Source: a virus
Lineage: Duplodnaviria; Caudoviricetes
IMG/VR virus record: IMGVR_UViG_3300023174_000037
Length of the DNA stretch: 64,000 bases
Reading direction: 5' to 3' (one strand)
Shown here piece after piece: positions 947-20,981 of the stretch. The notes beneath the pieces were generated by a model. That model did not search any database, was not told where the DNA came from, and worked only from the letters and a program-made list of their open reading frames with translations. The translations under genes were made by a program, and so were the position numbers. Within the stretch, counting starts at the first letter, position 1. Each line of letters opens with the position of its first letter.

Positions 947-1022
947 TGGTGCCCCTTGTCCGACTCGAACAGACCACCTACGGATTACAAATCCGTTGCT
1001 CTACCGGATGAGCTAAAGGGGC
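947..1022 (-). tRNA. tRNA-Thr(TGT)
   Basis: Cloverleaf, stem ACGGA/TCCGT, loop TT-TGT-AA, encoded CCA. Confidence 0.95.
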
Positions 1023-1083
1023 GCACTACTACTTATTTGTCAAAAAACGCATACATAAATATCATGTGATTTAAAGGCTCTCA

Positions 1084-1230
1084 ATGAAAATTCAACAAGA
1101 CGATATAGGATTCTACCTTGAATTCAAGTATGCCCGTTATATCGAGCACCCGGGCTGGTACCTTATGGCAATAACATTACTCGGTGTCTTTGCATTTAAT
1201 TTAGGATTTTTAATAGGGTCAATTTATTAG
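1084..1230 (+). CDS. Small membrane protein (48 aa)
   Basis: Manual translation MKIQQDDIGFYLEF...LLGVFAFNLGFLIGSIY with a C-terminal hydrophobic helix; TAAATA motif upstream. Confidence 0.45.
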   Translation: MKIQQDDIGFYLEFKYARYIEHPGWYLMAITLLGVFAFNLGFLIGSIY

Positions 1231-1234
1231 GACC

Positions 1235-1324
1235 TGGCGGAGAGTGTGGGATTCGAACCCACGATAGTGTTGCCACTATGACGGTTTAGTAGACCGTTGG
1301 TTTCAGCCGCTCACCCAACTCTCC
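1235..1324 (-). tRNA. tRNA-Ser(ACT), unusual A34 anticodon
   Basis: Class II cloverleaf GGAGAGT acceptor, G73, long variable arm, stem ACGGT/ACCGT, loop CT-ACT-AA. Confidence 0.9.
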
Positions 1325-1385
1325 GTTATTTTACTGTCATATACAATTTGATAAATAATTTTATACAAAATAAACGGCGTATATA

Positions 1386-1817
1386 ATGTTACACACAATT
1401 ACCACTATCTCAGACGATCTTGCTACCCTTATCAAGGACGATCCTGTGCGCCCAGAAATACCCTTGTGTGATCGTGTAAACTCAAACAGTCGAATCTACA
1501 TGTTGAAAGATGGCGATCAAACATTGGCTGTTACTTGTGTTAAATTTTTAGAAACAATTCCTTCAGCAGTTGATGATTTGGTTGTAATGATCGGCAGCGC
1601 AACTACCGCGGTATTTTATACCATCTGGAGTTACACAGCTGGTGCCGGTCGAGAACTCATTGTTGAAGCTCAAAAGTCAATTGAATCAGAGTTTCCAGAG
1701 ATTCAAACTTATGTGACATTGAGTCCTAAGACCGAAATGGCTCGACGTTTTCACTTGAAAAACGGTGCTCGCGAACTACGCGAGAACGTCGACACCATCA
1801 ACTACATCTACAAATAA
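1386..1817 (+). CDS. Hypothetical protein, possibly GNAT-like fold
   Basis: ORF track; YTIWSYTAGAGRELI and RFHLKNGA resemble acetyl-CoA-binding motifs A and B. Confidence 0.5.
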   Translation: MLHTITTISDDLATLIKDDPVRPEIPLCDRVNSNSRIYMLKDGDQTLAVTCVKFLETIPSAVDDLVVMIGSATTAVFYTIWSYTAGAGRELIVEAQKSIESEFPEIQTYVTLSPKTEMARRFHLKNGARELRENVDTINYIYK

Positions 1818-1819
1818 CA

Positions 1820-1981
1820 TCACTTGTTTAAAATTTGTGTTTGTTTGAAAGCCTTGATTTTAGCATGAGCACTGGCTCGGCTGGCAGTAATTTGTCTACT
1901 GGCCTCAGATCTTTTTTCGGTCTTGGTCCATTGCCCTGCCAAGGTACGACTCAATTCAGTTGCTGTTTGTTGTTTTGCCAT
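1820..1981 (-). CDS. Small basic hypothetical protein (53 aa, MAKQQTATELSRTLAGQW...)
   Basis: Manual translation; AGGA RBS upstream. Confidence 0.55.
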   Translation of the reverse strand: MAKQQTATELSRTLAGQWTKTEKRSEASRQITASRASAHAKIKAFKQTQILNK

Positions 1982-2009
1982 TTGTATTCCTATCTAGAAA
2001 ATTTTGTTG

Positions 2010-2231
2010 TTATTTTACTTTGGACATATACTGAAGCATGTCAATTTTGCCTTGTTGCATTTCTAGCAAGGCATCAACAGGAGTAACATACGCACCAGTT
2101 TCTCGTGCCCGACGTTTGAGTTCACGTAGTCGTTGCGACACAGCAACGATCATGTCATACCGAGAACCAGCAAGGCTCACACATTTTTCAAGATCAACCT
2201 GGCTACTACGACTGTCAACGATTGGTTTCAT
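2010..2231 (-). CDS. rpoZ: RNA polymerase omega subunit-like protein
   Basis: SRYDMIVAVSQRLREL and VDALLEMQQGKI match the RpoZ motifs NRFxLVxxAxxRARQL and xALxEIxxGxI; 73 aa. Confidence 0.75.
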   Translation of the reverse strand: MKPIVDSRSSQVDLEKCVSLAGSRYDMIVAVSQRLRELKRRARETGAYVTPVDALLEMQQGKIDMLQYMSKVK

Positions 2232-2254
2232 ATCTTCTCCTGTTGTAAATGTAT

Positions 2255-2283
2255 ATTATACACGAAAACAATCTACTAGTCAA
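2255..2283 (-). promoter_or_regulatory. sigma70-type promoter for the rpoZ-like gene
   Basis: TTGACT-17 nt-TATAAT. Confidence 0.75.
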
Positions 2284-2981
2284 GCAATGATTTTTAATTC
2301 GTTAAACAATGGAACTATTTGTCGTTCAAAATACAATCGATGTCCATCATTGTTGATATGGCTATCAGCGCATTCGTATTGTTGATTAAATTTTAAATCC
2401 TTAATGCCCGAATAATCAAAATCCTGCACATTCTTAATTTGAGAAGCATGTAATACATCTTCTAATAGATCGAATGTGATATTATCTTCTGGTTCAAATT
2501 CTGGTAAACTCCAAAGAAACCGGGCACCTTGAATTGATGCTTGTCCATATGCCGCTAATATATTTGAAGTTGAAATATTTTTGTCTATGGCAATGTTTGA
2601 AAGATATTGGAGCTGGTATTTCTGTGCAGTTTGATAGTCGTCTGGCCCAGGTATTTCCCAACCAGGTACCCATGAGATTATTTTATCAGAATAGTAAGGA
2701 TGTGCAATTTGTTTTCTTTCTATATAGCTTCCTGCAAACACAATTAAATCAAACGTGTTTTCGGCGCAGGCATTTAATATATTAACAAGTATAGAAGTAT
2801 TATCAAGCCCAGGCAATGATTTATTCATCACAGTTAACGTAGGATATTGTTGTTGTAATAATGATGCCCAGCAAAATTCACTAGGACCATCTGTATCTTC
2901 CCATTTTGGTGGAGGACCGTCACCACGGTCACTGCATCCTTGCCCAAACGCAAAACTATCACCGGCAATTAAAATTTTCAT
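2280..2981 (-). CDS. SGNH/GDSL hydrolase-like protein
   Basis: N-terminal AGDSF and C-terminal DSH..DGH motifs. Confidence 0.6.
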   Translation of the reverse strand: MKILIAGDSFAFGQGCSDRGDGPPPKWEDTDGPSEFCWASLLQQQYPTLTVMNKSLPGLDNTSILVNILNACAENTFDLIVFAGSYIERKQIAHPYYSDKIISWVPGWEIPGPDDYQTAQKYQLQYLSNIAIDKNISTSNILAAYGQASIQGARFLWSLPEFEPEDNITFDLLEDVLHASQIKNVQDFDYSGIKDLKFNQQYECADSHINNDGHRLYFERQIVPLFNELKIIA

Positions 2982-3001
2982 ACAGTATTTAATACAACAT
3001 A

Positions 3002-3078
3002 TGGTGCCCCGAGAAAGATTCGAACCTTCAACAGCTCCCTTTTGAGGAGAGTGCGTCTACCAATTGCGCCACCGGGGC
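3002..3078 (-). tRNA. tRNA-Leu(CAA), short variable region
   Basis: Cloverleaf, loop CT-CAA-AA, A73, CCA; variable region about 5 nt. Confidence 0.9.
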
Positions 3079-3092
3079 GTGTAAAGTGCTTA

Positions 3093-3803
3093 TTATACAA
3101 CAACAGAAGTATTCCATTGTTGTGAGATAGCAGGTATTAATATGTTGTCGGCCCAGCTTACATAACTTTCTTTTGCAGGATGCCACTTATCCTCGGCTAG
3201 TGCAAAATTATTAGAGTTAACATATCCAAGAAGATTTTGAGTGTAAGGAACAAATGCTATTTGTTTGTTTGCAAAAAATTCTTGCATTTGATCAACTATA
3301 AGTTGATCTATATCATCAATACCAAAAAATACCAGCATGTGATCAGCCAATTGATTTACTAACCATATAGTGCATAGCAATTGGCTAATATCATTGTTTA
3401 TGTTGGAATAAAAAAAGTCTTGATTTTTTAACACATAAGTGTCATGTAAAATATCTACATGACGTTGGCCATCAATATAATTCTTAGTTGGTGATTGTTG
3501 AGAGTAAGTAAATCCGTTATCATGTTTTGGCATATATTTTTTACCAACAACATCTGGATGGTCTGGCGGCAAACGCATATTGCCGGTCCTAGTTGGAAAA
3601 GTTATTTGCCAAACTATATCAAAGGGTTCGTAAGGTGACAACACAAAATCATTTATTCTATTGATTTGTGTGCGATTAGTTCCGCCGCCAATGGCTAAAT
3701 TTATCAATTTGTTGTAGGCAAAATAGTCTTTGACATAATCGGCCCAGCCCGGTTGTTGAGTGAAACTACACCCACAAGTGACTAGCGTTTTAGGTGAATT
3801 CAT
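3093..3803 (-). CDS. SGNH hydrolase-like protein
   Basis: TCGCSFT, NLAIGGGTN and DKWHP motifs; TATAAATA upstream. Confidence 0.55.
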   Translation of the reverse strand: MNSPKTLVTCGCSFTQQPGWADYVKDYFAYNKLINLAIGGGTNRTQINRINDFVLSPYEPFDIVWQITFPTRTGNMRLPPDHPDVVGKKYMPKHDNGFTYSQQSPTKNYIDGQRHVDILHDTYVLKNQDFFYSNINNDISQLLCTIWLVNQLADHMLVFFGIDDIDQLIVDQMQEFFANKQIAFVPYTQNLLGYVNSNNFALAEDKWHPAKESYVSWADNILIPAISQQWNTSVVV

Positions 3804-3830
3804 TGTGCAATATTTATAGATTTAAATCAA

Positions 3831-3906
3831 TGGGGTAACCAATGGGAATCGAACCCATATTAACGGAATCACAATCCGTGGTGTTGACCGTTACACTATG
3901 ATCACC
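3831..3906 (-). tRNA. tRNA-His(GTG)
   Basis: G-1:C73 eight-pair acceptor, loop TT-GTG-AT. Confidence 0.95.
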
Positions 3907-3912
3907 ATTGTT

Positions 3913-3987
3913 TGGTCCGCCCTGCAGGAATCGAACCCACATTCTAGAGGTAGAAGCTCTATGTTCTATCCATTGAACTAAGGGCAG
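3913..3987 (-). tRNA. tRNA-Arg(TCT)
   Basis: Cloverleaf, loop CT-TCT-AC, CCA. Confidence 0.93.
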
Positions 3988-3994
3988 AATAATT

Positions 3995-4068
3995 TGGCAG
4001 AGGGTACTGGGATCGAACCAGTGATGACAGAGTCAAAGTCTGTAGTGTTACCGCTACACTAACCCCCA
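3995..4068 (-). tRNA. tRNA-Gln(TTG)
   Basis: Cloverleaf, loop CT-TTG-AC, G73. Confidence 0.93.
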
Positions 4069-4078
4069 ACAAAAAACT

Positions 4079-4153
4079 TGGTGCCCTGTAATAGAATCGA
4101 ACTACTACACCCGGACTACAAAACCGGACCTCTACCATTAAGGATAACAGGGC
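4079..4153 (-). tRNA. tRNA-Thr(TGT), second atypical copy
   Basis: Acceptor GCCCTGT/ACAGGGC, loop TT-TGT-AG, T-T mismatch at 31-39, weak D stem. Confidence 0.75.
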
Positions 4154-4158
4154 ATGTA

Positions 4159-4234
4159 TGGTGGTGCCTCCAGGAATTGAACCTGGTTCAACGGCTCTTC
4201 AGACCGCCGCTATGACCACATCAGCTAAAGCACC
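4159..4234 (-). tRNA. tRNA-Phe(GAA)
   Basis: Cloverleaf, loop CT-GAA-GA, CCA. Confidence 0.93.
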
Positions 4235-4300
4235 ATATAGAAGCACACTCACGTTTCTGATGTCTCTGTATACTGTGTGTATACCGAGTATGCTTTTATA
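4235..4300 (-). repeat. Structured spacer motif, copy 1 (similar to the tmRNA intervening segment and the 9337-9404 element)
   Basis: Outer stem AAGCATACTC/GAGTGTGCTT, inner hairpin GTATAC-ACACA-GTATAC, tail AGAGACATCAGAAACGT. Confidence 0.7.
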
Positions 4301-4472
4301 TGGTAGGACCGCCCGGATTCGAACCGGGGATTGGCAGATTAAAAGTCTGCTGTGATACCGCTTCACCACGATCCCTTACTTTTTGTAAACGTCTAAGAGC
4401 TTTGGTACTCTTGCGGTGCGAGCCCGCCTTCCGTTTACTTGCCAATACAGCAAATATATTTCTTGGTTTCAT
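4296..4472 (-). CDS. Small Lys/Arg-rich ORF (MKPRNIFAVLASKRKAGSHRKS...) reading through tRNA-Lys
   Basis: Strong RBS AAGGAG; no in-frame stop before the tRNA. Confidence 0.4.
   Translation of the reverse strand: MKPRNIFAVLASKRKAGSHRKSTKALRRLQKVRDRGEAVSQQTFNLPIPGSNPGGPTI
4301..4375 (-). tRNA. tRNA-Lys(TTT)
   Basis: Cloverleaf, loop CT-TTT-AA, CCA. Confidence 0.95.
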
Positions 4473-4493
4473 TTCGCTTCTCCTTTTAAAAAT

Positions 4494-4570
4494 TGGTGGG
4501 TCTTGAGAGACTCGAACTCCCAACCGCTGGTTTCGAAGACCAGAACTCTAATCCATTGAGCTAAAGACCC
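4494..4570 (-). tRNA. tRNA-Arg(TCG)
   Basis: Cloverleaf, loop CT-TCG-AA. Confidence 0.93.
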
Positions 4571-4576
4571 GTATAC

Positions 4577-4668
4577 TGGTACCCCCGGCGGGAATCGAAC
4601 CCACATGAACCAATTATCTGTTGCTTACGGGATATAAATCCGCCGTTTTACCGTTAAACTACAGGGGC
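4577..4668 (-). tRNA. tRNA-Ile(TAT)-like with about 22-nt extra/variable region
   Basis: Acceptor GCCCCTG/CGGGGGT, A73 and CCA, loop TT-TAT-AT, insert AAGCAACAGATAATTGGTTCAT before the T arm. Confidence 0.75.
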
Positions 4669-4673
4669 AAATT

Positions 4674-4747
4674 TGGTGCTCTAACGTAGAATCGAACTAC
4701 GATTACTGTCATACCAAGACAGAGTTCTGCCATTAAACTATAAGAGC
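4674..4747 (-). tRNA. tRNA-Thr(GGT)
   Basis: Stem CTGTC/GACAG, loop TT-GGT-AT. Confidence 0.92.
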
Positions 4748-4752
4748 AAACA

Positions 4753-4827
4753 TGGAGCAGGATATCGGGGTCGAACCGATGACCTACACGTTGGCAACGT
4801 GTCGTTCTTCCACTGAACTAATCCTGC
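4753..4827 (-). tRNA. tRNA-Gly(GCC)
   Basis: Loop TT-GCC-AA, U73. Confidence 0.95.
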
Positions 4828-4832
4828 ATGAT

Positions 4833-4920
4833 TGGCGGAGAGTATCAGATTCGAACTGATGCGCCTCTTTCGAAACGACAGTTTAGCAAACTGCTGGTTT
4901 AACCACTCACCCAACTCTCC
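4833..4920 (-). tRNA. tRNA-Ser(GCT)
   Basis: Class II cloverleaf, loop TT-GCT-AA. Confidence 0.95.
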
Positions 4921-4927
4921 GTTATCT

Positions 4928-5002
4928 TGGTAGCCACGGTTGGGAACGATCCAACGGCCTAACGCTTATCAAGCGTTTGCTCTACCACTGAGCTACGCGG
5001 CT
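4928..5002 (-). tRNA. tRNA-Ile(GAT)
   Basis: Loop TT-GAT-AA, CCA. Confidence 0.93.
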
Positions 5003-5010
5003 ATATTGAA

Positions 5011-5230
5011 TTTGTTAAAGTAGCAGCACCACATTATTGCTGCCATTCACCCGAATTAACAAGCTCGAGCGGGAGTCGGTAAGTTACTTGGGATACCGGT
5101 CCAGTTTAGTCGCCTCAATGGACCCCTGCAGTTTCCCGCAGGGTGGGTGTCGAACCCATCACCTTCTACTGCGTTGGTCCTTCGAAGAAACCTAGACAGC
5201 GTGACTTTCTCTTGCTAACACTCTAACAAA
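5011..5230 (-). ncRNA. Unassigned structured RNA of about 220 nt (weak RNase P RNA-like elements)
   Basis: Terminal stem TTTGTTAGAGT/ACTTTAACAAA with G-U pairs favouring the minus strand, several internal hairpins, no ORF. Confidence 0.6.
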
Positions 5231-5233
5231 ACT

Positions 5234-5309
5234 TGGTACCTGAGACTGGACTCGAACCAGTATCGCTCTCCTTGTAAGGGAGACGTATAACCTCTCTACG
5301 CACTCAGGC
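5234..5309 (-). tRNA. tRNA-Val(TAC)
   Basis: Loop CT-TAC-AA. Confidence 0.93.
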
Positions 5310-5337
5310 TTTATATTCTCTAAGAACGACCCATGTA

Positions 5338-5416
5338 TGGTCCGAGTAGAAGGATTCGAACCTTCGATCTCCTGCTCCCAAAGCAGGCGGATTAAACCAG
5401 ACTTTCCTACACTCGG
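5338..5416 (-). tRNA. tRNA-Pro(TGG)
   Basis: Stem CCTGC/GCAGG, loop TT-TGG-GA, C1-G72, A73. Confidence 0.93.
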
Positions 5417-5419
5417 AGA

Positions 5420-5463
5420 AAAGAAAAACCACCAAGCTGTCCCCGAAGGCAACAGAAGGTGGC
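5420..5463 (-). terminator. UUCG-capped hairpin followed by a U-tract (terminator or processing site)
   Basis: CCACC..CTGT..CC-TTCG-GG..ACAG..GGTGG then TTTTTCTTTT. Confidence 0.5.
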
Positions 5464-5475
5464 CGTATTAAAAAG

Positions 5476-5596
5476 GTGAACAAGTCGTTATCACTGCCAC
5501 GCCCGGATATAATTACTCGCTCGGCAAGGGTACGTCACTAGACGGTTAGGAAAGGTAACCCGTGTGCATTTAACACTGCTCAAACAACTTGTTCAT
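5476..5596 (-). ncRNA. Unassigned structured RNA of about 120 nt
   Basis: 13-bp closing stem TGAACAAGTTGTT/AACGACTTGTTCA and internal hairpins. Confidence 0.55.
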
Positions 5597-5599
5597 AGT

Positions 5600-5674
5600 T
5601 GGTGGAAATAAGTAGATTCGAACTACTGACCTGCGCCGTATGAAGGCGATGCACTACCGCTGTGCTATATTTCC
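5600..5674 (-). tRNA. tRNA(CAT), elongator Met or Ile2
   Basis: G1-C72 paired (not an initiator), loop TT-CAT-AC. Confidence 0.88.
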
Positions 5675-5678
5675 AAAT

Positions 5679-5753
5679 TGGCGGTCTGTGGGGGAATCGA
5701 ACCCCCGTAAGTGGATAGACAATCCACAGTAATAACCTCTATACGAACAGACC
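5679..5753 (-). tRNA. tRNA-Asp(GTC)
   Basis: Loop TT-GTC-TA, G73. Confidence 0.93.
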
Positions 5754-5759
5754 TAAAAT

Positions 5760-5837
5760 TGGAGCAACGGGCGTGATTTGAACACGCGGTTTTACGGATT
5801 TGCAATCCGTTGCATTGGACCACTCTGCCACCGTTGC
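5760..5837 (-). tRNA. tRNA-Cys(GCA)
   Basis: Loop TT-GCA-AA, U73. Confidence 0.92.
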
Positions 5838-5844
5838 ATAAAAT

Positions 5845-5921
5845 TGGCTCCCCGTCGTGGGCTCGAACCACGGACATCGACATTAACAGTGTCGCGCAAC
5901 TACCAACTGTGCTAACGGGGA
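5845..5921 (-). tRNA. tRNA-Asn(GTT)
   Basis: Loop CT-GTT-AA, G73. Confidence 0.95.
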
Positions 5922-5929
5922 ATAAAAAC

Positions 5930-6003
5930 TGGAGCGGAGTGAGAGAATCGAACTCTCGACCGAAGATTGGAAATCTGCTGTTTTGCCATTAAACTAACCC
6001 CGC
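5930..6003 (-). tRNA. tRNA-Gly(TCC)
   Basis: Loop TT-TCC-AA, U73. Confidence 0.95.
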
Positions 6004-6011
6004 AAAATGCT

Positions 6012-6114
6012 TTCTGTCCGTCGTGGTAATTATAGTGTATCAGAAATTTGGTCAGGCTTTACCCCAATTAATCTTTCATCACTTACACCCTCCACCCACT
6101 CGCCACGGACAGAA
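6012..6114 (-). ncRNA. Unassigned rod-like structured RNA of about 100 nt
   Basis: 10-bp closing stem TTCTGTCCGT/ACGGACAGAA plus further nested helices. Confidence 0.5.
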
Positions 6115-6117
6115 CTC

Positions 6118-6252
6118 TCGTGTTGCCAACGCTGGTTTGGTCGACCCCATGGATGAACCCATGTCCTCTAATTTAATAGAGAAGAACCACCCTACTGAGG
6201 ACAACTCAGTTTCATTTCCTCTGGGTCAGAGTAGCAGTTGTGAAGCTGCATG
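6118..6252 (-). ncRNA. Unassigned multi-hairpin RNA directly downstream of its own promoter
   Basis: Five to six consecutive short hairpins (GCAG/CTGC, CTCTG/CAGAG, ACTGAG/CTCAGT, CTCTA/TAGAG, CATGG/CCATG). Confidence 0.45.
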
Positions 6253-6264
6253 TTCAATAATACA

Positions 6265-6293
6265 ATTATACTTGATTATGGTTACAATGTCAA
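6265..6293 (-). promoter_or_regulatory. Consensus sigma70 promoter inside the tRNA array
   Basis: TTGACA-17 nt-TATAAT. Confidence 0.85.
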
Positions 6294-6304
6294 GCATACT
6301 TTTT

Positions 6305-6389
6305 TGGTGCGACTGGCCGGAATCGAACCGGCACACCCGAAAGCGAGAGATTTTAAGTCTCTTGTGTCTACCTATTTCACCACAGTCGC
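6305..6389 (-). tRNA. tRNA-Leu(TAA)
   Basis: Class II with long arm, loop CT-TAA-AA. Confidence 0.95.
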
Positions 6390-6399
6390 ATTTTATCAC

Positions 6400-6476
6400 T
6401 GGTGCCCAAGGAGAGACTCGAACTCTCAAAATACGGCTTCTAAGACCGGCATGTATACCAATTCCATCACCTGGGC
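6400..6476 (-). tRNA. tRNA-Leu(TAG), short variable region
   Basis: Loop CT-TAG-AA, A73; no long arm. Confidence 0.88.
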
Positions 6477-6500
6477 CTGAATTTTTAAAGAACAAGCGCA

Positions 6501-6529
6501 ATTGTAGCGTTTATTCTTTATGTTGTCAA
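6501..6529 (-). promoter_or_regulatory. sigma70 promoter for the downstream tRNAs
   Basis: TTGACA-17 nt-TACAAT. Confidence 0.8.
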
Positions 6530-6999
6530 CCGTTAACTATCTTAAGGCCTCTTATTCTGTCTGCTGCATAGCTGGCCGCAAATGCCTGTGGCTTTACTAA
6601 CGGAACAACATTACAGGTGCCTTTGATGTAGCCAATCGCTTGTGCGACTACATTACTGCTGGCATGATGATCATCTGGATTGATATCCAGGTGAACTTCA
6701 ACTGCTCTATCTTCCAGCACTTCGGCAAGTTTCAAGTATAGTTCGCTTACTTTATACACTTCGATCATTAGTCTTGTGTTAGGTTTGTTTACACGATCGT
6801 AATCACGTTCACGTGTAACTTCGCCAAACAATTTACAACCATTGTTACCGTTGATATGAACCACAATGGCCGCAGTATAAATGCCATACCATTGCTTATC
6901 GTGACCTCTGACACGCTCGCTATCCACACCAATATAGATACGTGTGTCTGGGCCTTGCGCTTCTATAAATTGTTTAATGTGTGGGATATCAAACTTCAT
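6526..6999 (-). CDS. RNase H-like fold protein (YkuK/DUF458 family)
   Basis: IYIGVDS, RLMxE, EVHLDIN and ASYAAD motifs. Confidence 0.7.
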   Translation of the reverse strand: MKFDIPHIKQFIEAQGPDTRIYIGVDSERVRGHDKQWYGIYTAAIVVHINGNNGCKLFGEVTRERDYDRVNKPNTRLMIEVYKVSELYLKLAEVLEDRAVEVHLDINPDDHHASSNVVAQAIGYIKGTCNVVPLVKPQAFAASYAADRIRGLKIVNG

Positions 7000-7027
7000 T
7001 ATTATCTTTCTATATATTAACTACATC

Positions 7028-7119
7028 TGGCGGAAAGCAGAGGAGTCGAACCCCATCCCATTTCTGAGAACCTGGTTTTCAAGGCCAGTCGCAGGACCAT
7101 CCCCGCTGCATTACTTTCC
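7028..7119 (-). tRNA. tRNA-Ser(TGA)
   Basis: Class II, loop CT-TGA-AA. Confidence 0.93.
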
Positions 7120-7124
7120 ATATT

Positions 7125-7198
7125 TGGCATACCCCCAGGGACTCGAACCCCGACTAATAGTTTTGGAGACTAGTGTGCTGCCATTACACTAGGGGCAT
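7125..7198 (-). tRNA. tRNA-Trp(CCA)
   Basis: Loop CT-CCA-AA, G73. Confidence 0.93.
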
Positions 7199-7205
7199 AT
7201 TAAAC

Positions 7206-7280
7206 TGGTACTCGGAAGGGGAATCGAACCCCTCTTCCCGCCGTGAAAGGGCGGTGTCCTAACCGATAGACGACCCGAGC
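7206..7280 (-). tRNA. tRNA-Glu(TTC)
   Basis: Stem CCGCC/GGCGG, loop CT-TTC-AC. Confidence 0.95.
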
Positions 7281-7287
7281 AAAAACT

Positions 7288-7376
7288 TGGTGGAAGTGGT
7301 TGGATTCGAACCAACAATGTTTCTTATGTGGCGGATTTACAGTCCGTTGCCTTCAACCAATTCAGCGCACACTTCC
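7288..7376 (-). tRNA. tRNA-Tyr(GTA)
   Basis: Class II, loop CT-GTA-AA. Confidence 0.95.
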
Positions 7377-7381
7377 CAACT

Positions 7382-7457
7382 TGGTGGAGGATATCGGACT
7401 CGAACCGATCACCCCTAGCTTGCAAAGCTAGTGCTCTCCCAGATGAGCTAAACCCCC
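7382..7457 (-). tRNA. tRNA-Ala(TGC)
   Basis: G3-U70, loop TT-TGC-AA. Confidence 0.95.
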
Positions 7458-7459
7458 AA

Positions 7460-7657
7460 TTATTTCTTATCTAGCTTTGGTTCTTCATAAACCATTGCTT
7501 CTTTTTCTACATAGACTGGAAAAAATTTCCAACCAAAACTTTTCCAATACTTGTGAATGATATTGTTGATAACAACTGCTGTTACTACAACAACAATAAA
7601 CCCAAGTCCTGTCAAAATTGAACCTGCTAAAAATACTGCTGCTTGATCAATGTCCAT
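7460..7657 (-). CDS. Small membrane protein (65 aa, MDIDQAAVFLAGS...)
   Basis: AAGGAG RBS; the longer ORF-track start overlaps tRNA-fMet. Confidence 0.65.
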   Translation of the reverse strand: MDIDQAAVFLAGSILTGLGFIVVVVTAVVINNIIHKYWKSFGWKFFPVYVEKEAMVYEEPKLDKK

Positions 7658-7671
7658 GCTTACTCCTTTAA

Positions 7672-7746
7672 TGGTTGCGGGGGAAGGAATCGAACCTCCG
7701 GCTTCCAGGTTATGAGCCTGGCGGTCTACCGCTGACGTACCCCGCG
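7672..7746 (-). tRNA. Initiator tRNA-fMet(CAT)
   Basis: C1-A72 mismatch, loop CT-CAT-AA. Confidence 0.9.
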
Positions 7747-7812
7747 ATATTAGGTGTAGGGCTTCCACCTACTCCCACCTCGTTTTAAAGTCCGCGTGTC
7801 CAGGACTTGATC

Positions 7813-8397
7813 TTACATGGTAGGACCATTTCCGTTCTTAAATCCCACCACACCGCCTTCTGCCTCAATACGTTTGATAACGTCTTCAAACAGGATAGGT
7901 GCAAAGTCAGTTTGTTCTACACAAACACAGTGATACCTAGTATCAACAATGTCAGTGATCTTGCCATTGAATCCTGGCAACATGACACGATTGGCATGCA
8001 AGTGTCCGTGGATGTTGACGCCAAAACGACCCAGACTTTCCGAGTGGATAGGAATGTGACTCAGGATCATTCCATTCATAACATGGTAAGCACGAAGTTC
8101 ACGAAAGTGTTCACGGTATTCACTGTCTCTGAAGATATCATGGTTACCACGGATCAACACCTTGTCACCGTTTAACCTGCGCATGATGCCTAAGGCTTTA
8201 CGGTTGATAACAACGTCACCTAAATGATAGACCTTGTCAGTGGGTTTTACCCGTTCGTTCCACGCCTTGACCATAGCTTCGTCCATCTCCTCTGCGGAAT
8301 CCCATGGACGAAGTTTTGTAACACCATCGTTACGTGTGAAGCGGCATACACCTGTGTGTCCAAAGTGCGTGTCGCTTACTAAAAATACACTAGGCAT
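7813..8397 (-). CDS. Calcineurin-like metallophosphoesterase
   Basis: SDTHFGH, LGDV, GNHD, SH and HGHLH motifs. Confidence 0.9.
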   Translation of the reverse strand: MPSVFLVSDTHFGHTGVCRFTRNDGVTKLRPWDSAEEMDEAMVKAWNERVKPTDKVYHLGDVVINRKALGIMRRLNGDKVLIRGNHDIFRDSEYREHFRELRAYHVMNGMILSHIPIHSESLGRFGVNIHGHLHANRVMLPGFNGKITDIVDTRYHCVCVEQTDFAPILFEDVIKRIEAEGGVVGFKNGNGPTM

Positions 8398-8908
8398 CTT
8401 GCCCTCCTTTCTTATCTGTTAAATGCTGTCTATAATCGGCTCTCCAACTGTGAGTCGAATCCTCACTATCGTAAGTCCACCCCAACAAGCGCATCATTTT
8501 ATGCTTGACCAACAAGTTAGGACTACGAAATCTTTCACAATCTCCAAATCCCATCATTACACCTATCTCGCACACTGCACCCGACCTGCAAATGCCAGCA
8601 TGACAGTGAACAACCACATTCATCCGATTTTCCCAGGCATGTTGCAACAATCGGACAAGTTGTTCTGCTTGCTCATCTGTGATGGCAAATTCACTGAGGT
8701 CAATTGTTCGACCGTCACCGGTGGTTGTTACACCTTCTTCTTCTTCTATATCCAAAAACGTAAATTGATGAATTTCTTTAAACGTATGCTTGGGTGTAGG
8801 GAACGCCATGTCGTGGTCTGAAATCTGTATCAGCATACTGTTGGCACCACAATCGTGATGCCTTCCTGTTGCTACATTTTCTAAAGGTATATTTTCAATC
8901 CACGGCAT
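8390..8908 (-). CDS. Protein-tyrosine/dual-specificity phosphatase-like protein
   Basis: VHCHAGICRS CX5R P-loop. Confidence 0.8.
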   Translation of the reverse strand: MPWIENIPLENVATGRHHDCGANSMLIQISDHDMAFPTPKHTFKEIHQFTFLDIEEEEGVTTTGDGRTIDLSEFAITDEQAEQLVRLLQHAWENRMNVVVHCHAGICRSGAVCEIGVMMGFGDCERFRSPNLLVKHKMMRLLGWTYDSEDSTHSWRADYRQHLTDKKGGQDA

Positions 8909-8928
8909 AATTGTCTCTTTCTAACTGT

Positions 8929-8957
8929 ATTATAGCTGATTGGCTATTTTGGGTCAA
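8929..8957 (-). promoter_or_regulatory. sigma70 promoter
   Basis: TTGACC-17 nt-TATAAT. Confidence 0.75.
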
Positions 8958-8988
8958 CCAACTAATTTGTAATACGTTTGTATTACGA

Positions 8989-9315
8989 TCATGCAGTCAT
9001 CCAGCGTTCCTCTGATTCGAGCACCAAACTTTCTGAACCATCATACTCGTCTATGCGGAACCTGGCACCCACTGGCACCCATTCTACTTGTAAATCTTCT
9101 GCCCCTCCGCAGTATGCTTCAGGATATTTTAACTCCATGTAGGTAAGAATTTTATCAAGTTCTTTGTTTTCAATCCAGGTCACAACACAAGGATCGTAGA
9201 CTAGTTCTTCGATATGGTGCCAAGTATACCAACCAGCACCGTATCCTGGACTTACCAACACAGCTACTCGACCATCACGAATTAATTTATTTGGCAATGA
9301 CATGATTTTCTCCAT
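8989..9315 (-). CDS. Conserved phage hypothetical protein
   Basis: ORF track, AVLVSPGYGAGW motif, RBS. Confidence 0.7.
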   Translation of the reverse strand: MEKIMSLPNKLIRDGRVAVLVSPGYGAGWYTWHHIEELVYDPCVVTWIENKELDKILTYMELKYPEAYCGGAEDLQVEWVPVGARFRIDEYDGSESLVLESEERWMTA

Positions 9316-9336
9316 AACACACTCTTATGAATGTGT

Positions 9337-9404
9337 GTATTAAAGCACACTCACCCGAATGGACCTTGTCACCTCCGCCTACTGTCGGAAGTGTGCTTTA
9401 ATAC
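9337..9404 (-). repeat. 15-bp perfect inverted repeat enclosing a hairpin (spacer motif copy 3)
   Basis: GTATTAAAGCACACT...AGTGTGCTTTAATAC; inner TCCG-ACAGTAGG-CGGA. Confidence 0.7.
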
Positions 9405-9510
9405 GCTGTGATTTTTCGCTCCACAAAAGGAGTTTCATCCCACAGGCCGCCCGTTTGTGCTTGTTTATAGTGTAGCACAGGACCTCGTTTCCTGCAACCA
9501 CTTTGTGCTG

Positions 9511-9675
9511 TTAGTTTACACTAAACGTTGGTGCTTTTGCTAACGCTTGGTGATACACTCTGGCACGTTCGAACTTATCTTGAATAAGTTTCTGAAGTTG
9601 TTCTTTATTCAAAACAGCTTCATAAGCCTGTTCAATGACACGTTCATTTAATTTTGTATGATCTATCTTTTCCAT
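9511..9675 (-). CDS. Small hypothetical protein (54 aa, MEKIDHTKLNERV...)
   Basis: Manual translation; AAGGA RBS right after the attenuator hairpin. Confidence 0.6.
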   Translation of the reverse strand: MEKIDHTKLNERVIEQAYEAVLNKEQLQKLIQDKFERARVYHQALAKAPTFSVN

Positions 9676-9689
9676 TTTTCCTTTTCTAA

Positions 9690-9785
9690 AAACAAAAAAC
9701 CCCAGGGTTTTTAATCCTAGGGTTCTTTAAGTTTGAGTAGTATCTGCTATTTAAGCGTACCCACTTCCCTTCAAGAACCCTGAGC
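9690..9785 (-). terminator. Attenuator: terminator hairpin with competing antiterminator
   Basis: AACCCTAGG/CCTGGGGTT stem plus U-tract; AGGGTTCTT (9773-9782) can pair with AAGAACCCT instead. Confidence 0.7.
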
Positions 9786-9906
9786 TAATATAGCCCTCTG
9801 GTGTGCGATCTAATGATAGACTATTGTTCGCAAACCAAGAGGTCAGCGTCAAGCATACCTGTTTGGCTATGGAACTAAATTGTCTATGTAAAGATAGCGA
9901 TTTCAT
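9751..9906 (-). CDS. Putative leader peptide (51 aa, MKSLSLHRQF...GFLKGSGYA)
   Basis: Lies between a consensus promoter and the attenuator; its 3' end overlaps the antiterminator arm. Confidence 0.55.
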   Translation of the reverse strand: MKSLSLHRQFSSIAKQVCLTLTSWFANNSLSLDRTPEGYISSGFLKGSGYA

Positions 9907-9962
9907 TTTTGTTTCTGGTTTCCTAAAATTTTACAAACAGCATCATTGCTGTCTATGTGTTT

Positions 9963-9991
9963 ATTATACAGTTATTTAGTCTCGTTGTCAA
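9963..9991 (-). promoter_or_regulatory. Consensus sigma70 promoter with embedded CTAAATA late-type motif
   Basis: TTGACA-ACGAGACTAAATAACTG-TATAAT. Confidence 0.85.
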
Positions 9992-10083
9992 CCTCTAAGT
10001 TTGTTTTTTTATCTTTTTCTTAAAAATATTTTTCAACTAAGTGTCAAGTATACACTGGATGTCATTCAAGGTCAACCAGCCGT

Positions 10084-10110
10084 AAAAAAAGACACCTAGG
10101 TGTCTTTTTA
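10084..10110. terminator. Palindromic, probably bidirectional terminator
   Basis: AAAAAGACAC-CTAG-GTGTCTTTTT. Confidence 0.65.
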
Positions 10111-10129
10111 TTTCTAGTAGAGTTAACTA

Positions 10130-10855
10130 TTAGAATGCTTTGCCTACTGAAAAGACTGCGGCATTGCGATATAGCTTTTGACCATTCACGGTGTTGGCTG
10201 TGTTGAATGTGCTAGTCTTGTCGCCGTTGGTGTAATACTTAGCGGCCAAGTTCCAACCTTGTAGGTTGTAACCTACACCAAAATTGTAATCATTGTAGTC
10301 CAATGAAGAACTGTTAGCAACATTAGTCTTACCTGCGTGAGCAAGCAAACTGATCTTTGATCCAGCGATTGGATATGCTACATCAGCTTGGTAGTATGCT
10401 GTGCCTTGTGCATTGGCTGTACCAAAATAACCATTGCCTAGTGTACGATTATACTTGACACTAACTGGACCATAACCTAGACCAACATAACCTTCGTATG
10501 TGTCAAAGTTTGAACCTGTCTTAGCTGAAGTAGTAGAACGTGGATAAAAATAGTTATAAGAACCAACATCAAGTGTTAGGCCTTTATAAATGTCTTTCTT
10601 CCAACCCGCATATACATCAGACTCAACACCCGAACCGTTTGTGTAAACTTGTGAGCTTACTGAACTGTTCCAGTTACCGATATAGAAACCGCTGGAGTGA
10701 TTGTAGTCAATGCCGCCTTGGACAGCAGGAGCATTTTGGGATTGACTGATGCCGCGGAAACGGTAGTCACTTGTCAAGCCTAAATTGCCAGATACTTGAG
10801 CATGAGCAGAAGTAATGCCAGCCAATACGAATAATGCTAATAGTAATTTCTTCAT
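10130..10855 (-). CDS. TorF-family putative outer-membrane porin (TIGR02001-like)
   Basis: Signal peptide; SDYRFRGISQS..PAVQGGIDY motif; C-terminal Phe. Confidence 0.85.
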   Translation of the reverse strand: MKKLLLALFVLAGITSAHAQVSGNLGLTSDYRFRGISQSQNAPAVQGGIDYNHSSGFYIGNWNSSVSSQVYTNGSGVESDVYAGWKKDIYKGLTLDVGSYNYFYPRSTTSAKTGSNFDTYEGYVGLGYGPVSVKYNRTLGNGYFGTANAQGTAYYQADVAYPIAGSKISLLAHAGKTNVANSSSLDYNDYNFGVGYNLQGWNLAAKYYTNGDKTSTFNTANTVNGQKLYRNAAVFSVGKAF

Positions 10856-10974
10856 TTGTTTTATTTCCTTTTAAAAGTAATGCTTAGAATAATATTTAGT
10901 GGGTTTCACGAGTGGCCTGTAATTTTTGCACACTTTCCTACCACTTTTATAGTTAACGGCATAGTTAACTGGCT

Positions 10975-11003
10975 AAAAAAGAGCCCACCGAAGCGGGCTC
11001 TTG
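10975..11003 (-). terminator. Rho-independent terminator after the tmRNA
   Basis: GAGCCCGC-TTCG-GTGGGCTC followed by TTTTTT. Confidence 0.85.
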
Positions 11004-11009
11004 TTATTT

Positions 11010-11345
11010 TCTGTTACGAGGTATAACTACCCTATCGCGGTGATTAAACTGCGAAAGATGTGGCTTTCACTGTACGAGCAGAGAACTTGACGTTCTTACC
11101 TGAAACAGTTACTTCGCCTGTAGATGTTTTTGCATTTACATTATTTGCTTGATTTACAGTCATCGCCTACTGTGTTGCCGTCTCTATTATCTCACCCTGT
11201 CGAAACCATGGCAGGCCCATTATGAAGTATACTCACGTTTCTTATGTCTCTGTTGGCTATGTGCCAACCGAATATACTTTATGGTGGACCTGGCGGGAGT
11301 CGAACCCGCGTCCAGAATGCCTTCACTTTGAAGGGATTACAACAA
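11010..11345 (-). ncRNA. ssrA: Circularly permuted (two-piece) tmRNA
   Basis: Acceptor piece ...GGACGCGGGTTCGACTCCCGCCAGGTCCACCA (ends 11282) precedes the coding piece GGGCCTGCCATGGTTTCGAC (starts 11218); G3-U70; tag ORF 11133-11044. Confidence 0.9.
11219..11281 (-). repeat. tmRNA intervening segment = spacer motif copy 2
   Basis: Outer stem AAGTATATTC/GAGTATACTT, inner GTTGGC-ACATA-GCCAAC, tail AGAGACATAAGAAACGT. Confidence 0.75.
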
Positions 11346-11349
11346 TTCT

Positions 11350-11589
11350 TTAATACACTGCAACAGGTATTGCGGGACTAAATCCTGCTAGTAGCGACTG
11401 ATAACCGTTTGCGCTTTCGGTGCTACTCCACATTCTAACATTTGTTGTAGTATCAGCAGTGTTGCTCCATATGTATACCTGTCCGTTGGTTGTTCCTGCA
11501 GTTGTTTGTGCGCTGATATAGCTAGCTAACTGGGAAGTTTCAGCCTCAGTGAGCACTCGAGGTACAGTTATTTCTGTAAAATATGCCAT
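11350..11589 (-). CDS. Hypothetical protein
   Basis: ORF track; AGGAG RBS. Confidence 0.65.
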   Translation of the reverse strand: MAYFTEITVPRVLTEAETSQLASYISAQTTAGTTNGQVYIWSNTADTTTNVRMWSSTESANGYQSLLAGFSPAIPVAVY

Positions 11590-11644
11590 TTAAAAACTCC
11601 TTTTTTAGTATGTGCTATCAAATACAAATAGCACTATTAACTAC

Positions 11645-11848
11645 TTATGCCGGCACAATATTTGATGCCTGCTTGCCTTTTGGGCCCTGAACCAAGTCAA
11701 ATTTTACCACTTGGTTTTCTTTTAATGTTTTAAATCCATTAATATTAATTGCTGAAAAATGTGCAAATACATCCTCGCCGCCGTCATCTGGTGTAATGAA
11801 TCCAAAACCTTTTGCATCATTAAACCATTTTACTTTACCTACTACCAT
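11645..11848 (-). CDS. cspA: Cold-shock protein
   Basis: [16 protein letters not shown] (RNP1) and VFAHFSAI (RNP2). Confidence 0.97.
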
Positions 11849-11882
11849 ATATTACTACTTCCTTTTAAATTAAACATGAGTG

Positions 11883-12062
11883 CTAATTATAGCCTTTTAC
11901 AACATTTTTGTCAACCTTGGGATTACCTTTTGCATGGGCATCTTGATGTGATTGCCTCATGCGATCACGTTCGGTTGGCAACTTTCCACAACCCAACCGA
12001 TCCCATTCTTTTTCAGAATAGTAATACTGGTCAACGGGTTTTTTCTGCTGCTTCACGATCAT
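11883..12062 (-). CDS. Small hypothetical protein (59 aa, MIVKQQKKPVDQYYYSEKEW...)
   Basis: Manual translation. Confidence 0.5.
   Translation of the reverse strand: MIVKQQKKPVDQYYYSEKEWDRLGCGKLPTERDRMRQSHQDAHAKGNPKVDKNVVKGYN
11886..11914 (-). promoter_or_regulatory. Consensus sigma70 promoter for the csp gene
   Basis: TTGACA-17 nt-TATAAT. Confidence 0.85.
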
Positions 12063-12077
12063 ACTATTTAGCTTGTT

Positions 12078-12154
12078 TGGTGGGCCAGGTGGGATTCTAA
12101 CCCACGATCAATGCTTTATGAGAACACTGCTTTAGGACACTAAGCTACTGGCCC
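12078..12154 (-). tRNA. tRNA(CAT), probably Ile2
   Basis: GGGCCAG acceptor, loop CT-CAT-AA, G1-C72. Confidence 0.85.
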
Positions 12155-12171
12155 GGATACGTAGTATAGCA

Positions 12172-12543
12172 CTAAGGCTCGTAGTTGTCAAGGAATTGTT
12201 TGAGATTTCCGTATAAATTTACCATAACTGCTTCTCGGCTGCCAAAAAATACAATCTTTTTAGGTATGCCTTTGACAGCATGAATGTAGTAAGGCATTTG
12301 CATTTTACGGTCTAATTTTAGAATCAATTGTTTATTAAACGTATGTGGATCGTCGATACTGTATGAGTAATGTTCTAGATCTAGGTCTTCTGAAAGTGTT
12401 TGATAACCAGTGCCGGTCAATCTCATGCCACCGTTACGCCGCAAATTAAACCACCAACTGGGAACGGCACTTTCTACACTAATCCGTTGTTCGTCAGGTA
12501 ATAGTGCAATTAGCTCTTCTGTGAGTTTTCTTTTATCACGCAC
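12172..12543 (-). CDS. Hypothetical protein
   Basis: ORF track; in operon. Confidence 0.7.
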   Translation of the reverse strand: MRDKRKLTEELIALLPDEQRISVESAVPSWWFNLRRNGGMRLTGTGYQTLSEDLDLEHYSYSIDDPHTFNKQLILKLDRKMQMPYYIHAVKGIPKKIVFFGSREAVMVNLYGNLKQFLDNYEP

Positions 12544-12544
12544 A

Positions 12545-12832
12545 TCAAGGATAAACCTGATTGCCTGCAGTCAACAAAACCACAGTGAACTTTTCAGTTT
12601 TAAATTGTGTGTTTAATTTTTTTGCCAAGTTCTTGGCATGCCCAGGATTACTAAATGAAACTTTTTTGTATTTGGGGCCTGGATATTGGACCAGTAAGTT
12701 TGACGTTTTGAGATTGATAGGTTTAGCATCATAGAACACAGCCCATACACCTTCCGAAGCCAAAACCTGCTCACTCTTATAGGTGGCCTTGTTTGTGTGC
12801 TCGATCAATACATTGGGTTTTGGACGACTCAT
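12545..12832 (-). CDS. Hypothetical protein
   Basis: ORF track; AGGAG RBS. Confidence 0.75.
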   Translation of the reverse strand: MSRPKPNVLIEHTNKATYKSEQVLASEGVWAVFYDAKPINLKTSNLLVQYPGPKYKKVSFSNPGHAKNLAKKLNTQFKTEKFTVVLLTAGNQVYP

Positions 12833-12877
12833 ATCATTAAACTCCTATATTTTATTTATCTAGAAATATAGGTAGTT

Positions 12878-13093
12878 TTAGAATGTGCCACCATCCATTT
12901 TTACGGTAATTGTTTCTGTGTCTTTTTGGAGGGTTTTAACTGTGTGTTCACGTAAAGCCTGAAGTTCTAGTAGTAGTCTAGTGATATCGGCGTGTAGGTC
13001 CTGGGCATCTTTCAAACTCATAATAAAGTCTCGGGCTCCACGAGCTTGCTGACCTTGAACTCGCTCAATAAATTTACTTAGATGAATTGTCAT
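12878..13093 (-). CDS. Hypothetical protein (start probably MTIHLSKF)
   Basis: ORF track; overlaps the upstream stop. Confidence 0.6.
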   Translation of the reverse strand: MTIHLSKFIERVQGQQARGARDFIMSLKDAQDLHADITRLLLELQALREHTVKTLQKDTETITVKMDGGTF

Positions 13094-14720: not shown

Positions 14721-14749
14721 AGTATAACAGAAGTTATCTATTATGTCAA
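14721..14749 (-). promoter_or_regulatory. sigma70 promoter
   Basis: TTGACA-17 nt-TATACT. Confidence 0.8.
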
Positions 14750-20951: not shown

Positions 20952-20981
20952 ATTATACAGTAGTTCACTGCTGTCTGTCAA
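20952..20981 (-). promoter_or_regulatory. sigma70 promoter
   Basis: TTGACA-18 nt-TATAAT. Confidence 0.75.

Follow-up and report, generated by a model that had tools for sequence, protein, structure and literature searches.

The element analyzed here lies at positions 9690–9991, on the minus strand, of the window, by which we mean the whole 64-kb stretch of DNA (64,000 nucleotides) taken from the IMG/VR virus record IMGVR_UViG_3300023174_000037. Its source is a giant, uncultured freshwater phage, and the element stands at the head of a region that carries a large tRNA array. It combines a promoter, a short leader open reading frame (ORF), an intrinsic terminator and a segment of the leader that can pair with the terminator, a layout which a reading made from the sequence alone (the sequence-only reading) had taken for a leader-peptide transcription attenuator. 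Coordinates are those of the window, and all features of the attenuator unit are on the minus strand:

9963–9991, minus strand: sigma-70-type promoter, with TTGACA at 9991–9986, a spacer of 17 nucleotides (nt) and TATAAT at 9968–9963; 12 of 12 positions match the consensus
9933–9956, minus strand: stem-loop at the 5' end of the leader RNA, specific to the class of units with a long 5' untranslated region (UTR)
9751–9906, minus strand: leader ORF, 51 codons followed by TAA
9835–9837, minus strand: sole tryptophan codon of the leader, in the 3' arm of a local hairpin
9769–9784, minus strand: segment 2, the 5' strand of the antiterminator, within the last leader codons; core AGGGTTCTT at 9781–9773
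9717–9731, minus strand: segment 3, the 3' strand of the antiterminator, overlapping the 5' arm of the terminator; core AAGAACCCT at 9727–9719
9698–9724, minus strand: terminator hairpin of 9 base pairs with a 9-nt loop, arms AACCCTAGG (9724–9716) and CCTGGGGTT (9706–9698), −12.9 kcal/mol
9688–9699, minus strand: U-tract TTTTTTGTTTTT, after the 3' arm of the terminator

Transcription is predicted to start near A9956. The promoter is as perfect as the sequence-only reading had described it, and its 51-residue leader ORF with AGGGTTCTT among the last codons is found at 9906–9751. Its description of the terminator has to be amended in one respect: the 9-base-pair hairpin, the U-tract and an exact complement of the leader segment are all present, but the complement is not the 5' arm itself. 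The arm is AACCCTAGG, with which AAGAACCCT shares six nucleotides (AACCCT). AGGGTTCTT is the exact complement of AAGAACCCT, and neither this 9-mer nor its complement occurs anywhere else in the window. The extended pairing of 9784–9769 with 9731–9717 covers eight of the nine nucleotides of the arm, so that antiterminator and terminator are mutually exclusive. The terminator itself starts 32 nt past the leader stop codon.

The duplex of segments 2 and 3 (2:3) is far more stable than expected from its composition, at −22.3 kcal/mol compared to −12.6 ± 2.3 kcal/mol for dinucleotide shuffles, and beats 500 out of 500 of these (p 0.002). When the window RNA is cut short at the 5' arm of the terminator, it adopts the 2:3 helix in folding (−23 kcal/mol, z −3.5). 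The full leader is unusually structured, its minimum free energy (MFE) being −77.6 kcal/mol (z −5.4); in the MFE fold, the antiterminator is formed and the terminator is not.

Searches by DNA similarity found no relatives among isolate phage genomes; the relatives of this phage are solely metagenomic. We gathered them through the neighboring 108-amino-acid gene, a conserved 18-mer downstream of the unit, the terminator-loop word, and contigs encoding a downstream 54-amino-acid protein. The attenuator unit was found in about 60 IMG/VR or metagenome contigs, several of them 320–350 kb long, and these comprise at least 18 leader lineages with peptide similarities below about 60% between them. A scan of bacterial genomes with the terminator-loop word returned two unrelated terminators only and no attenuator unit.

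The antiterminator pairing is present in every related lineage. Outside a GGG/CCC core the strands differ between lineages and do so in a compensatory manner: in closer relatives of the window, AGGGTTCA/TGAACCCT and GGGGTCC/GGACCCC replace AGGGTTCTT/AAGAACCCT, and other lineages have pairs such as AGGGTTTTG/CAAAACCCT and GGGTTCTGAGTA/TACTCAGAACCC. In comparison to dinucleotide shuffles, the 2:3 duplex was significant at p ≤ 0.006 in 12 of the 18 lineages tested and at p ≤ 0.05 in 16 of them. Cognate segments 2 and 3 pair at −20.7 kcal/mol on average, non-cognate ones at −15.2 kcal/mol, and none of 100,000 permutations reached the observed mean (p ∼1e-5). In a MAFFT alignment built from sequence only, 11 of 14 antiterminator pairs showed changes on both sides; compensatory cells numbered 33, compared to 18.4 ± 3.7 after shuffling (0 of 500 as high), and the signal peaked at the proposed register. 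The terminator stem is 99% paired across relatives, and double-sided changes affect five of its nine pairs, many more than in shuffled or slid controls. Judged by these comparisons, both helices are maintained by selection. The sequence-only reading had named conservation of the antiterminator beforehand as the test that could refute it; the compensatory changes uphold that pairing, the terminator covaries as well, and the attenuator layout is supported. Apart from the helices, unusual sequence conservation is seen in the terminator loop and in the promoter spacer; the RNA outside both helices is not conserved between lineages.

In the leader-promoter spacer (9969–9985, minus strand) we observed a TAAATAA-like motif, which is present in 33 of 41 promoter variants across the family and missing from the remaining strong promoters in the window. 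A regulator of initiation may act at this site.

A leader ORF of 20–51 codons is found in every related unit, and its frame is open in all lineages. Random frames of matched composition remain open in just 5–35% of cases in all lineages but one. Despite the varying length of the ORF, in all lineages its stop codon lies 27–35 nt ahead of the terminator's CCC. In 19 promoter variants of the relatives, for which start sites were predicted, the ATG follows the −10 hexamer by 6–7 nt and thus sits at the expected transcription start, from which we conclude that the leaders of most relatives are probably leaderless mRNAs. The window copy departs from this arrangement, as its start codon is not at the transcription start: the ATG is 56 nt past the −10 box, which leaves a 5' UTR of about 50–56 nt. 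The class to which the window belongs has acquired this UTR of about 50 nt, made up of the 5' hairpin and an A-rich stretch, with no Shine-Dalgarno sequence. In the L007 class, the arms of the equivalent 5' hairpin differ in sequence yet still pair, as judged by eye and with no count made. Elsewhere in the window, strong promoters at 20952–20981 and 14721–14749 (both minus strand) have an ATG 5–6 nt past the −10 hexamer; leaderless mRNAs may be common in this phage.

We modeled the effect of a ribosome on the fold by masking a footprint of 30 nt. With the footprint at the stop codon, the folding model gives the terminator a probability of 0.87–1.0 in all 23 lineages. For the window leader, the modeled terminator probability is 0.28 in the free RNA, 0.93 with a ribosome at the stop codon and 0.30 with one at the Trp codon. 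The core of segment 2 ends 20 nt ahead of the stop, which is the edge of the modeled footprint.

The choice between the two helices could also be made with no ribosome involved, by a phage or host protein, a tRNA bound in the manner of a T-box, or a metabolite. The strong structure of the leader (z −5.4) would suit such a switch, and the unusually conserved terminator loop and promoter spacer could mark binding sites. However, an Rfam cmscan of positions 7000–13000 at E ≤ 1 returned only tRNA, tmRNA and chance matches, none of them within 9690–9991, and at this threshold there was no covariance-model match to the leader families (Trp_leader, His_leader, Leu_leader, Thr_leader and others) or to the T-box. 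What is conserved, moreover, is the open frame, its start at the expected transcription start and the position of its stop, and not the RNA outside the helices. Further, a single RNA pocket would not explain why leader alphabets track tRNA sets, as described below. We therefore regard a factor- or ligand-driven switch as very improbable.

In nearly every locus with enough sequence, the unit is followed by a tRNA array on the same strand, usually 16–500 nt away; tRNAs upstream of the unit are few. In two lineages, represented by L055 and by L056–L059/L066/L070, the first tRNA lies 16–37 nt past the terminator. This gap leaves no room for a promoter, so that these arrays would be transcribed by read-through only. 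The sequence-only reading had placed the unit at the head of a tRNA operon with phosphatases in between; both phosphatase genes and array are present on the minus strand past the unit, and the comparative synteny, with two lineages lacking promoter room, backs the link. Among the tRNAs of relatives, ARAGORN reports some with a four-base anticodon (ttac; L057 4375–4449, L070 6834–6908), and tRNAs with a CUA anticodon (called Pyl; amber-suppressor-like) occur in or near arrays (L047 1637–1715, L056 6007–6081).

The same facts bear on whether the unit could be a self-contained small gene or RNA, that is, the source of a short and abundant RNA, either regulatory or the mRNA of a micro-protein, in which the complementary segment tunes terminator efficiency or RNA stability independently of the ribosome. 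The L030/L037 and L047 units are directly followed by another promoter-like block and are in this sense cassette-like; the terminated RNA would be highly structured; and an attenuator-derived RNA that acts in trans is known in rnTrpL of Sinorhizobium (PMC6614838). Yet a compensated helix competing with the gene's own terminator is not expected at a plain gene end, nor is a fixed distance between stop codon and terminator. The two lineages whose tRNAs, 16–37 nt on, could be transcribed by read-through only also speak against this explanation, and the peptide is too poorly conserved for a functional micro-protein. We give it little credence.

The composition of the leader connects it to the tRNAs downstream. 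The array in the window covers all 20 amino acids with 28 anticodon kinds. The window leader in turn contains all 20 amino acids and, among its 51 codons, 41 distinct ones (p 0.0002 in comparison to windows of phage genes and 0.001 under a Markov open-frame null). It has a readable codon for 27 of the 28 downstream anticodon kinds (null 21.3, p 0.001) and an exact Watson-Crick codon for 22 of them (null 16.2, p 0.008). No amino acid is represented by a run of codons, so that the regulatory codons of classic attenuators are missing. As the sequence-only reading had pointed out, the leader is rich in serine (10 of 51 residues), but its breadth of 20 amino acids and 41 codons is more telling, and the proposal that it senses general translational stress can be sharpened: the leader samples nearly the whole decoding repertoire of the downstream array. 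In this phage, one such all-codon leader stands before one complete array.

Five of five diverged leaders of the long class hold all 20 amino acids (each p 0.03–0.065). We considered whether this feature is very rare by itself and rejected the idea, as the significance is individually modest (p 0.04–0.07 for the window); the composition signal lies in its recurrence among diverged leaders and in the codon-anticodon coverage. Leaders followed by other arrays have other alphabets. The L047 leader lacks Asp, His, Arg and Tyr, and the tRNAs for these four are upstream of the unit; its downstream array can read 33 of 35 leader codons (p 0.005). L055 has seven downstream tRNAs, which can read 13 of the 25 codons in its leader (4.0 expected under the null, p 2e-4); the leader encodes Arg twice, each time with AGA, matching the eighth tRNA of the contig, Arg(UCU). 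The leader of L057 has 22 residues and uses no amino acid outside the set of its array (21 of 21 residues, p 5e-4); its lineage is the only one with a Trp-free leader, and its arrays have no tRNA-Trp. These cases are consistent with a leader alphabet that shrinks with the downstream array where the latter is partial.

The peptides themselves show a different kind of conservation. Their Trp is aligned and invariant in all lineages save one, accompanied by a recurrent KQ/QP motif and an acidic position, and the distance from start to Trp is fairly constant, whereas that from Trp to stop varies. Beyond the Trp, the peptides fall to 41–57% similarity even inside one class. The conserved positions could be determinants of an arrest peptide, namely the Trp, a K/R-Q or Q-P motif before it and an acidic residue 8–12 positions after it. 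An attenuator of the same architecture would then sense a small molecule or factor on which the nascent leader peptide stalls the ribosome, rather than tRNA supply. Besides the pattern and spacing just described, the Arg codons of a D-R motif differ synonymously between lineages (CGC and CGT, judged by eye), which also favors this reading. The divergence of the remainder within one class does not, and the C-terminal Gly-rich motif is dictated by RNA pairing. The Trp codon also belongs to a conserved hairpin arm, so that some of the constraint on it may be exerted on the RNA. In addition, an arrest peptide would not account for the wide range of amino acids and codons, for the match to the tRNAs downstream, or for the loss of Trp exactly where tRNA-Trp is absent. 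We therefore think it improbable that the leader is an arrest-peptide sensor. The leader peptides may resemble known arrest peptides in their Trp-to-Pro spacing and an IRG-like motif, a likeness which we did not use as evidence. Each of the three alternatives discussed so far leaves part of the evidence unexplained.

On balance, we consider it likely that the unit is a ribosome-mediated, leader-peptide transcription attenuator that heads the tRNA region and raises transcription of the tRNA operon when decoding is slow; we infer that the ORF is translated, that the fold is determined by the position of the ribosome and that the natural signal is a shortage of tRNA. In the proposed mechanism, the host-type consensus promoter would start a leader RNA bearing the 51-codon ORF, and segment 2, in the last codons of this ORF, could pair with segment 3, which takes in the 5' arm of the terminator and its 5' flank. 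Because segment 3 is transcribed before the 3' arm of the terminator, and because the 2:3 helix is the more stable, a free segment 2 would capture segment 3 and the polymerase would read through. A ribosome translating to the end of the ORF would cover segment 2, upon which the terminator would form, transcription would stop at the U-tract and a short leader RNA would be released. Slow or stalled decoding anywhere in the leader would yield more read-through, first into the gene of the 54-amino-acid protein and then into the phosphatase genes and the tRNA array. With all 20 amino acids and codons for 27 of 28 anticodon kinds, the leader would be a broad sentinel of tRNA supply, and the arrangement would constitute a negative feedback, in which scarcity of usable tRNA leads to more tRNA transcription and faster decoding closes the loop. 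Candidates for the natural trigger are shut-off of the host, anticodon nucleases, and codons mismatched to the host.

Part of what such read-through would have to cross in the window is set out by the features downstream of the unit:

9511–9675, minus strand: gene of a 54-amino-acid protein, first after the terminator, with a good Shine-Dalgarno sequence (AAGGA); present after the unit in most lineages
9469–9497, minus strand: promoter-like block TTGCAG-17-TACACT, with TTGACA in most relatives
7813–9315, minus strand: 108-amino-acid ORF, PTP/DSP-like phosphatase and metallophosphoesterase, with a promoter at 8957–8929, between the unit and the tRNAs
947–7746, minus strand: tRNA array, 29 tRNAs found by ARAGORN and a candidate at 7032–7119 (a sub-threshold Rfam match of the tRNA-Sec type)

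When scanned for intrinsic terminators, the stretch from 9690 to the tRNA array yielded no strong one. The first tRNA lies 1951 nt beyond the attenuator, compared to 492 nt in L001, the closest relative.

Several observations weigh against attenuation by a translating ribosome. Some concern the control of the array: in the window, the promoter-like block at 9497–9469 and the strong promoter at 8957–8929 separate the attenuator from the tRNAs, and other tRNA blocks have promoters of their own (6529, 6293, 12191). With these additional promoters, tRNA output in the window cannot hinge on read-through alone. Others concern translation: the A-rich region upstream of the window leader ORF has no Shine-Dalgarno sequence, and this lack, together with the long 5' UTR, means that translation of the window ORF is not assured. 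In the best-sampled class, codon positions 1, 2 and 3 have 9, 10 and 17 variable columns, which amounts to a mild excess at the third position; we rejected this analysis as stand-alone proof of coding, the excess being too weak. With regard to the switch itself, equilibrium folding with no ribosome present already makes the terminator dominant in about half of the lineages, where the switch would rest on co-transcriptional kinetics. A search across lineages for a conserved protector (1:2) helix, as found in trp, turned up none that was convincing, and an untranslated leader should therefore read through. In truncated folds of some lineages segment 2 pairs weakly with the 5' end or the start region, a partner that shows no conservation and may fall before the start site. 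Finally, some caveats concern the composition results. The L054 genome, 93% complete, has only 6 tRNA kinds downstream of a leader with 17 amino-acid kinds. Combined p-values are overstated, since the tests were chosen after inspection of the data and the lineages share ancestry, although the results do point consistently in one direction. A strict rule by which the leader would be restricted to the amino acids of the downstream array was tried and dropped; it fails in L054 and is uninformative for arrays that are complete or cut by the end of the locus.

The nearest known counterparts include the attenuators of enterobacterial amino-acid operons, such as trpL, hisL, leuL, thrL and pheL, among which the ilvGMEDA and thr leaders are multivalent. 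The phage unit shares with them an intrinsic terminator and a short promoter-proximal ORF whose end harbors the antiterminator's 5' strand; in both, a ribosome at the stop codon would favor termination and one stalled upstream read-through, resulting in a negative feedback on the supply of charged tRNA. It differs from them in having neither a codon run for a single amino acid (20 amino acids and 41 codons are used instead) nor a conserved 1:2 protector helix. It is also phage-borne, its regulated genes are tRNAs and small proteins rather than biosynthetic enzymes, and its mRNA is probably leaderless in most relatives. A leader-peptide attenuator has been described for pheL (PMC3082878). In mycobacteria, leaderless short ORFs encoding polycysteine are Cys-responsive attenuators (bioRxiv 10.1101/834739). 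Like the phage unit as proposed here, they have a short ORF at or near the transcription start, no Shine-Dalgarno sequence, and a downstream operon controlled by ribosome behavior; unlike it, they sense one amino acid through runs of Cys codons and control Cys-related genes, and the window copy is not leaderless, although its relatives look so.

T-box riboswitches (RF00230) likewise couple the state of the tRNA pool to a choice between terminator and antiterminator ahead of genes of the translation apparatus, but they work without an ORF, through direct binding of one specific uncharged tRNA, whereas the phage unit has a conserved open frame and no match to the T-box model. Antibiotic-responsive attenuators with leader ORFs, such as msrD (PMC10314930) and the tylosin-induced yxjB (PMC6851288), resemble the proposed mechanism in that ribosome stalling on a short leader ORF shifts the fold from terminator to antiterminator, and in a general responsiveness to impaired translation. 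In contrast to the phage unit, they need drug-bound ribosomes and specific arrest peptides and control resistance genes. Literature searches found no published case of an attenuator ahead of phage or bacterial tRNA genes.

It has long been asked why phages carry tRNA genes, and the regulation of these genes has hardly been addressed. They have been proposed to serve codon compensation, to replace a degraded host pool, or to evade defenses that target tRNAs (PMC10264068, PMC11555353, PMC11464382). Beyond the single unit, one may picture a homeostatic circuit of tRNA supply in giant phages, in which the leader samples the repertoire of its own array, gates that array along with candidate RNA-end phosphatases, and co-evolves in its alphabet with the tRNA set; we hold this wider proposal to be evenly poised between right and wrong. 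Replacement tRNAs would be boosted in such a circuit when host tRNAs are short, mismatched to the codon usage of the phage, or cut by anticodon nucleases. If true, phages would gauge decoding speed and adjust tRNA production to demand, and the logic of attenuation would extend from amino-acid operons to tRNA genes, with codon breadth instead of codon runs as the sensor. A further use of the cassette, which measures about 300 base pairs, could be as a small and tunable reporter for translation stress.

The 54-amino-acid protein encoded directly after the terminator belongs to a family of more than 377 metagenome clusters, for which searches of Pfam, PHROG, Atlas and Foldseek-PDB yielded no match. 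It is modeled as a two-helix hairpin (predicted local distance difference test score, pLDDT, 81) and has the invariant pattern L..L...K..R(A). In the promoter-like block that follows, the spacer GGAAACGAGGTCCTGTGC (17–18 nt) hardly varies. IMG/VR contigs with the exact 18-mer number 38; in about 35 it is located past the attenuator unit and ahead of the first tRNA, the other three matches being inside a coding gene; the block is trailed by a structured non-coding stretch, which in the window extends to about 9337. The conservation of this spacer suggests a bound factor or a role at the RNA level.

The PTP/DSP-like phosphatase and the metallophosphoesterase, which is calcineurin-like, occupy 7813–8908 (minus strand), ahead of the tRNAs. 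Both may be RNA-end healing enzymes co-expressed with the tRNAs. Within the array, about 180 nt ahead of tRNA-Gly(UCC), a second perfect consensus promoter at 6293–6265 (minus strand) precedes a 19-codon ORF, MQLHNCYSDPEEMKLSCPQ, along with a weak hairpin. This element (6184–6293, minus strand) has no clear pair of terminator and antiterminator like that of the main unit. Just upstream of the attenuator, at 10130–10855 (minus strand), lies a gene for an outer-membrane β-barrel of the Gcw_chp family (Pfam E 1e-49) with a signal peptide, and L002 carries the same gene in the same position. The terminator hairpin, including its loop AACCCCGGAACTAAACACTCCGGGGTTTTTTT, was also found to close an ordinary bacterial gene in L079 (∼7500–7540), a betaproteobacterial metagenome-assembled genome of the Usitatibacteraceae (JBGATH010000035.1), which is a hint at the hosts of these phages or at the origin of the terminator module.

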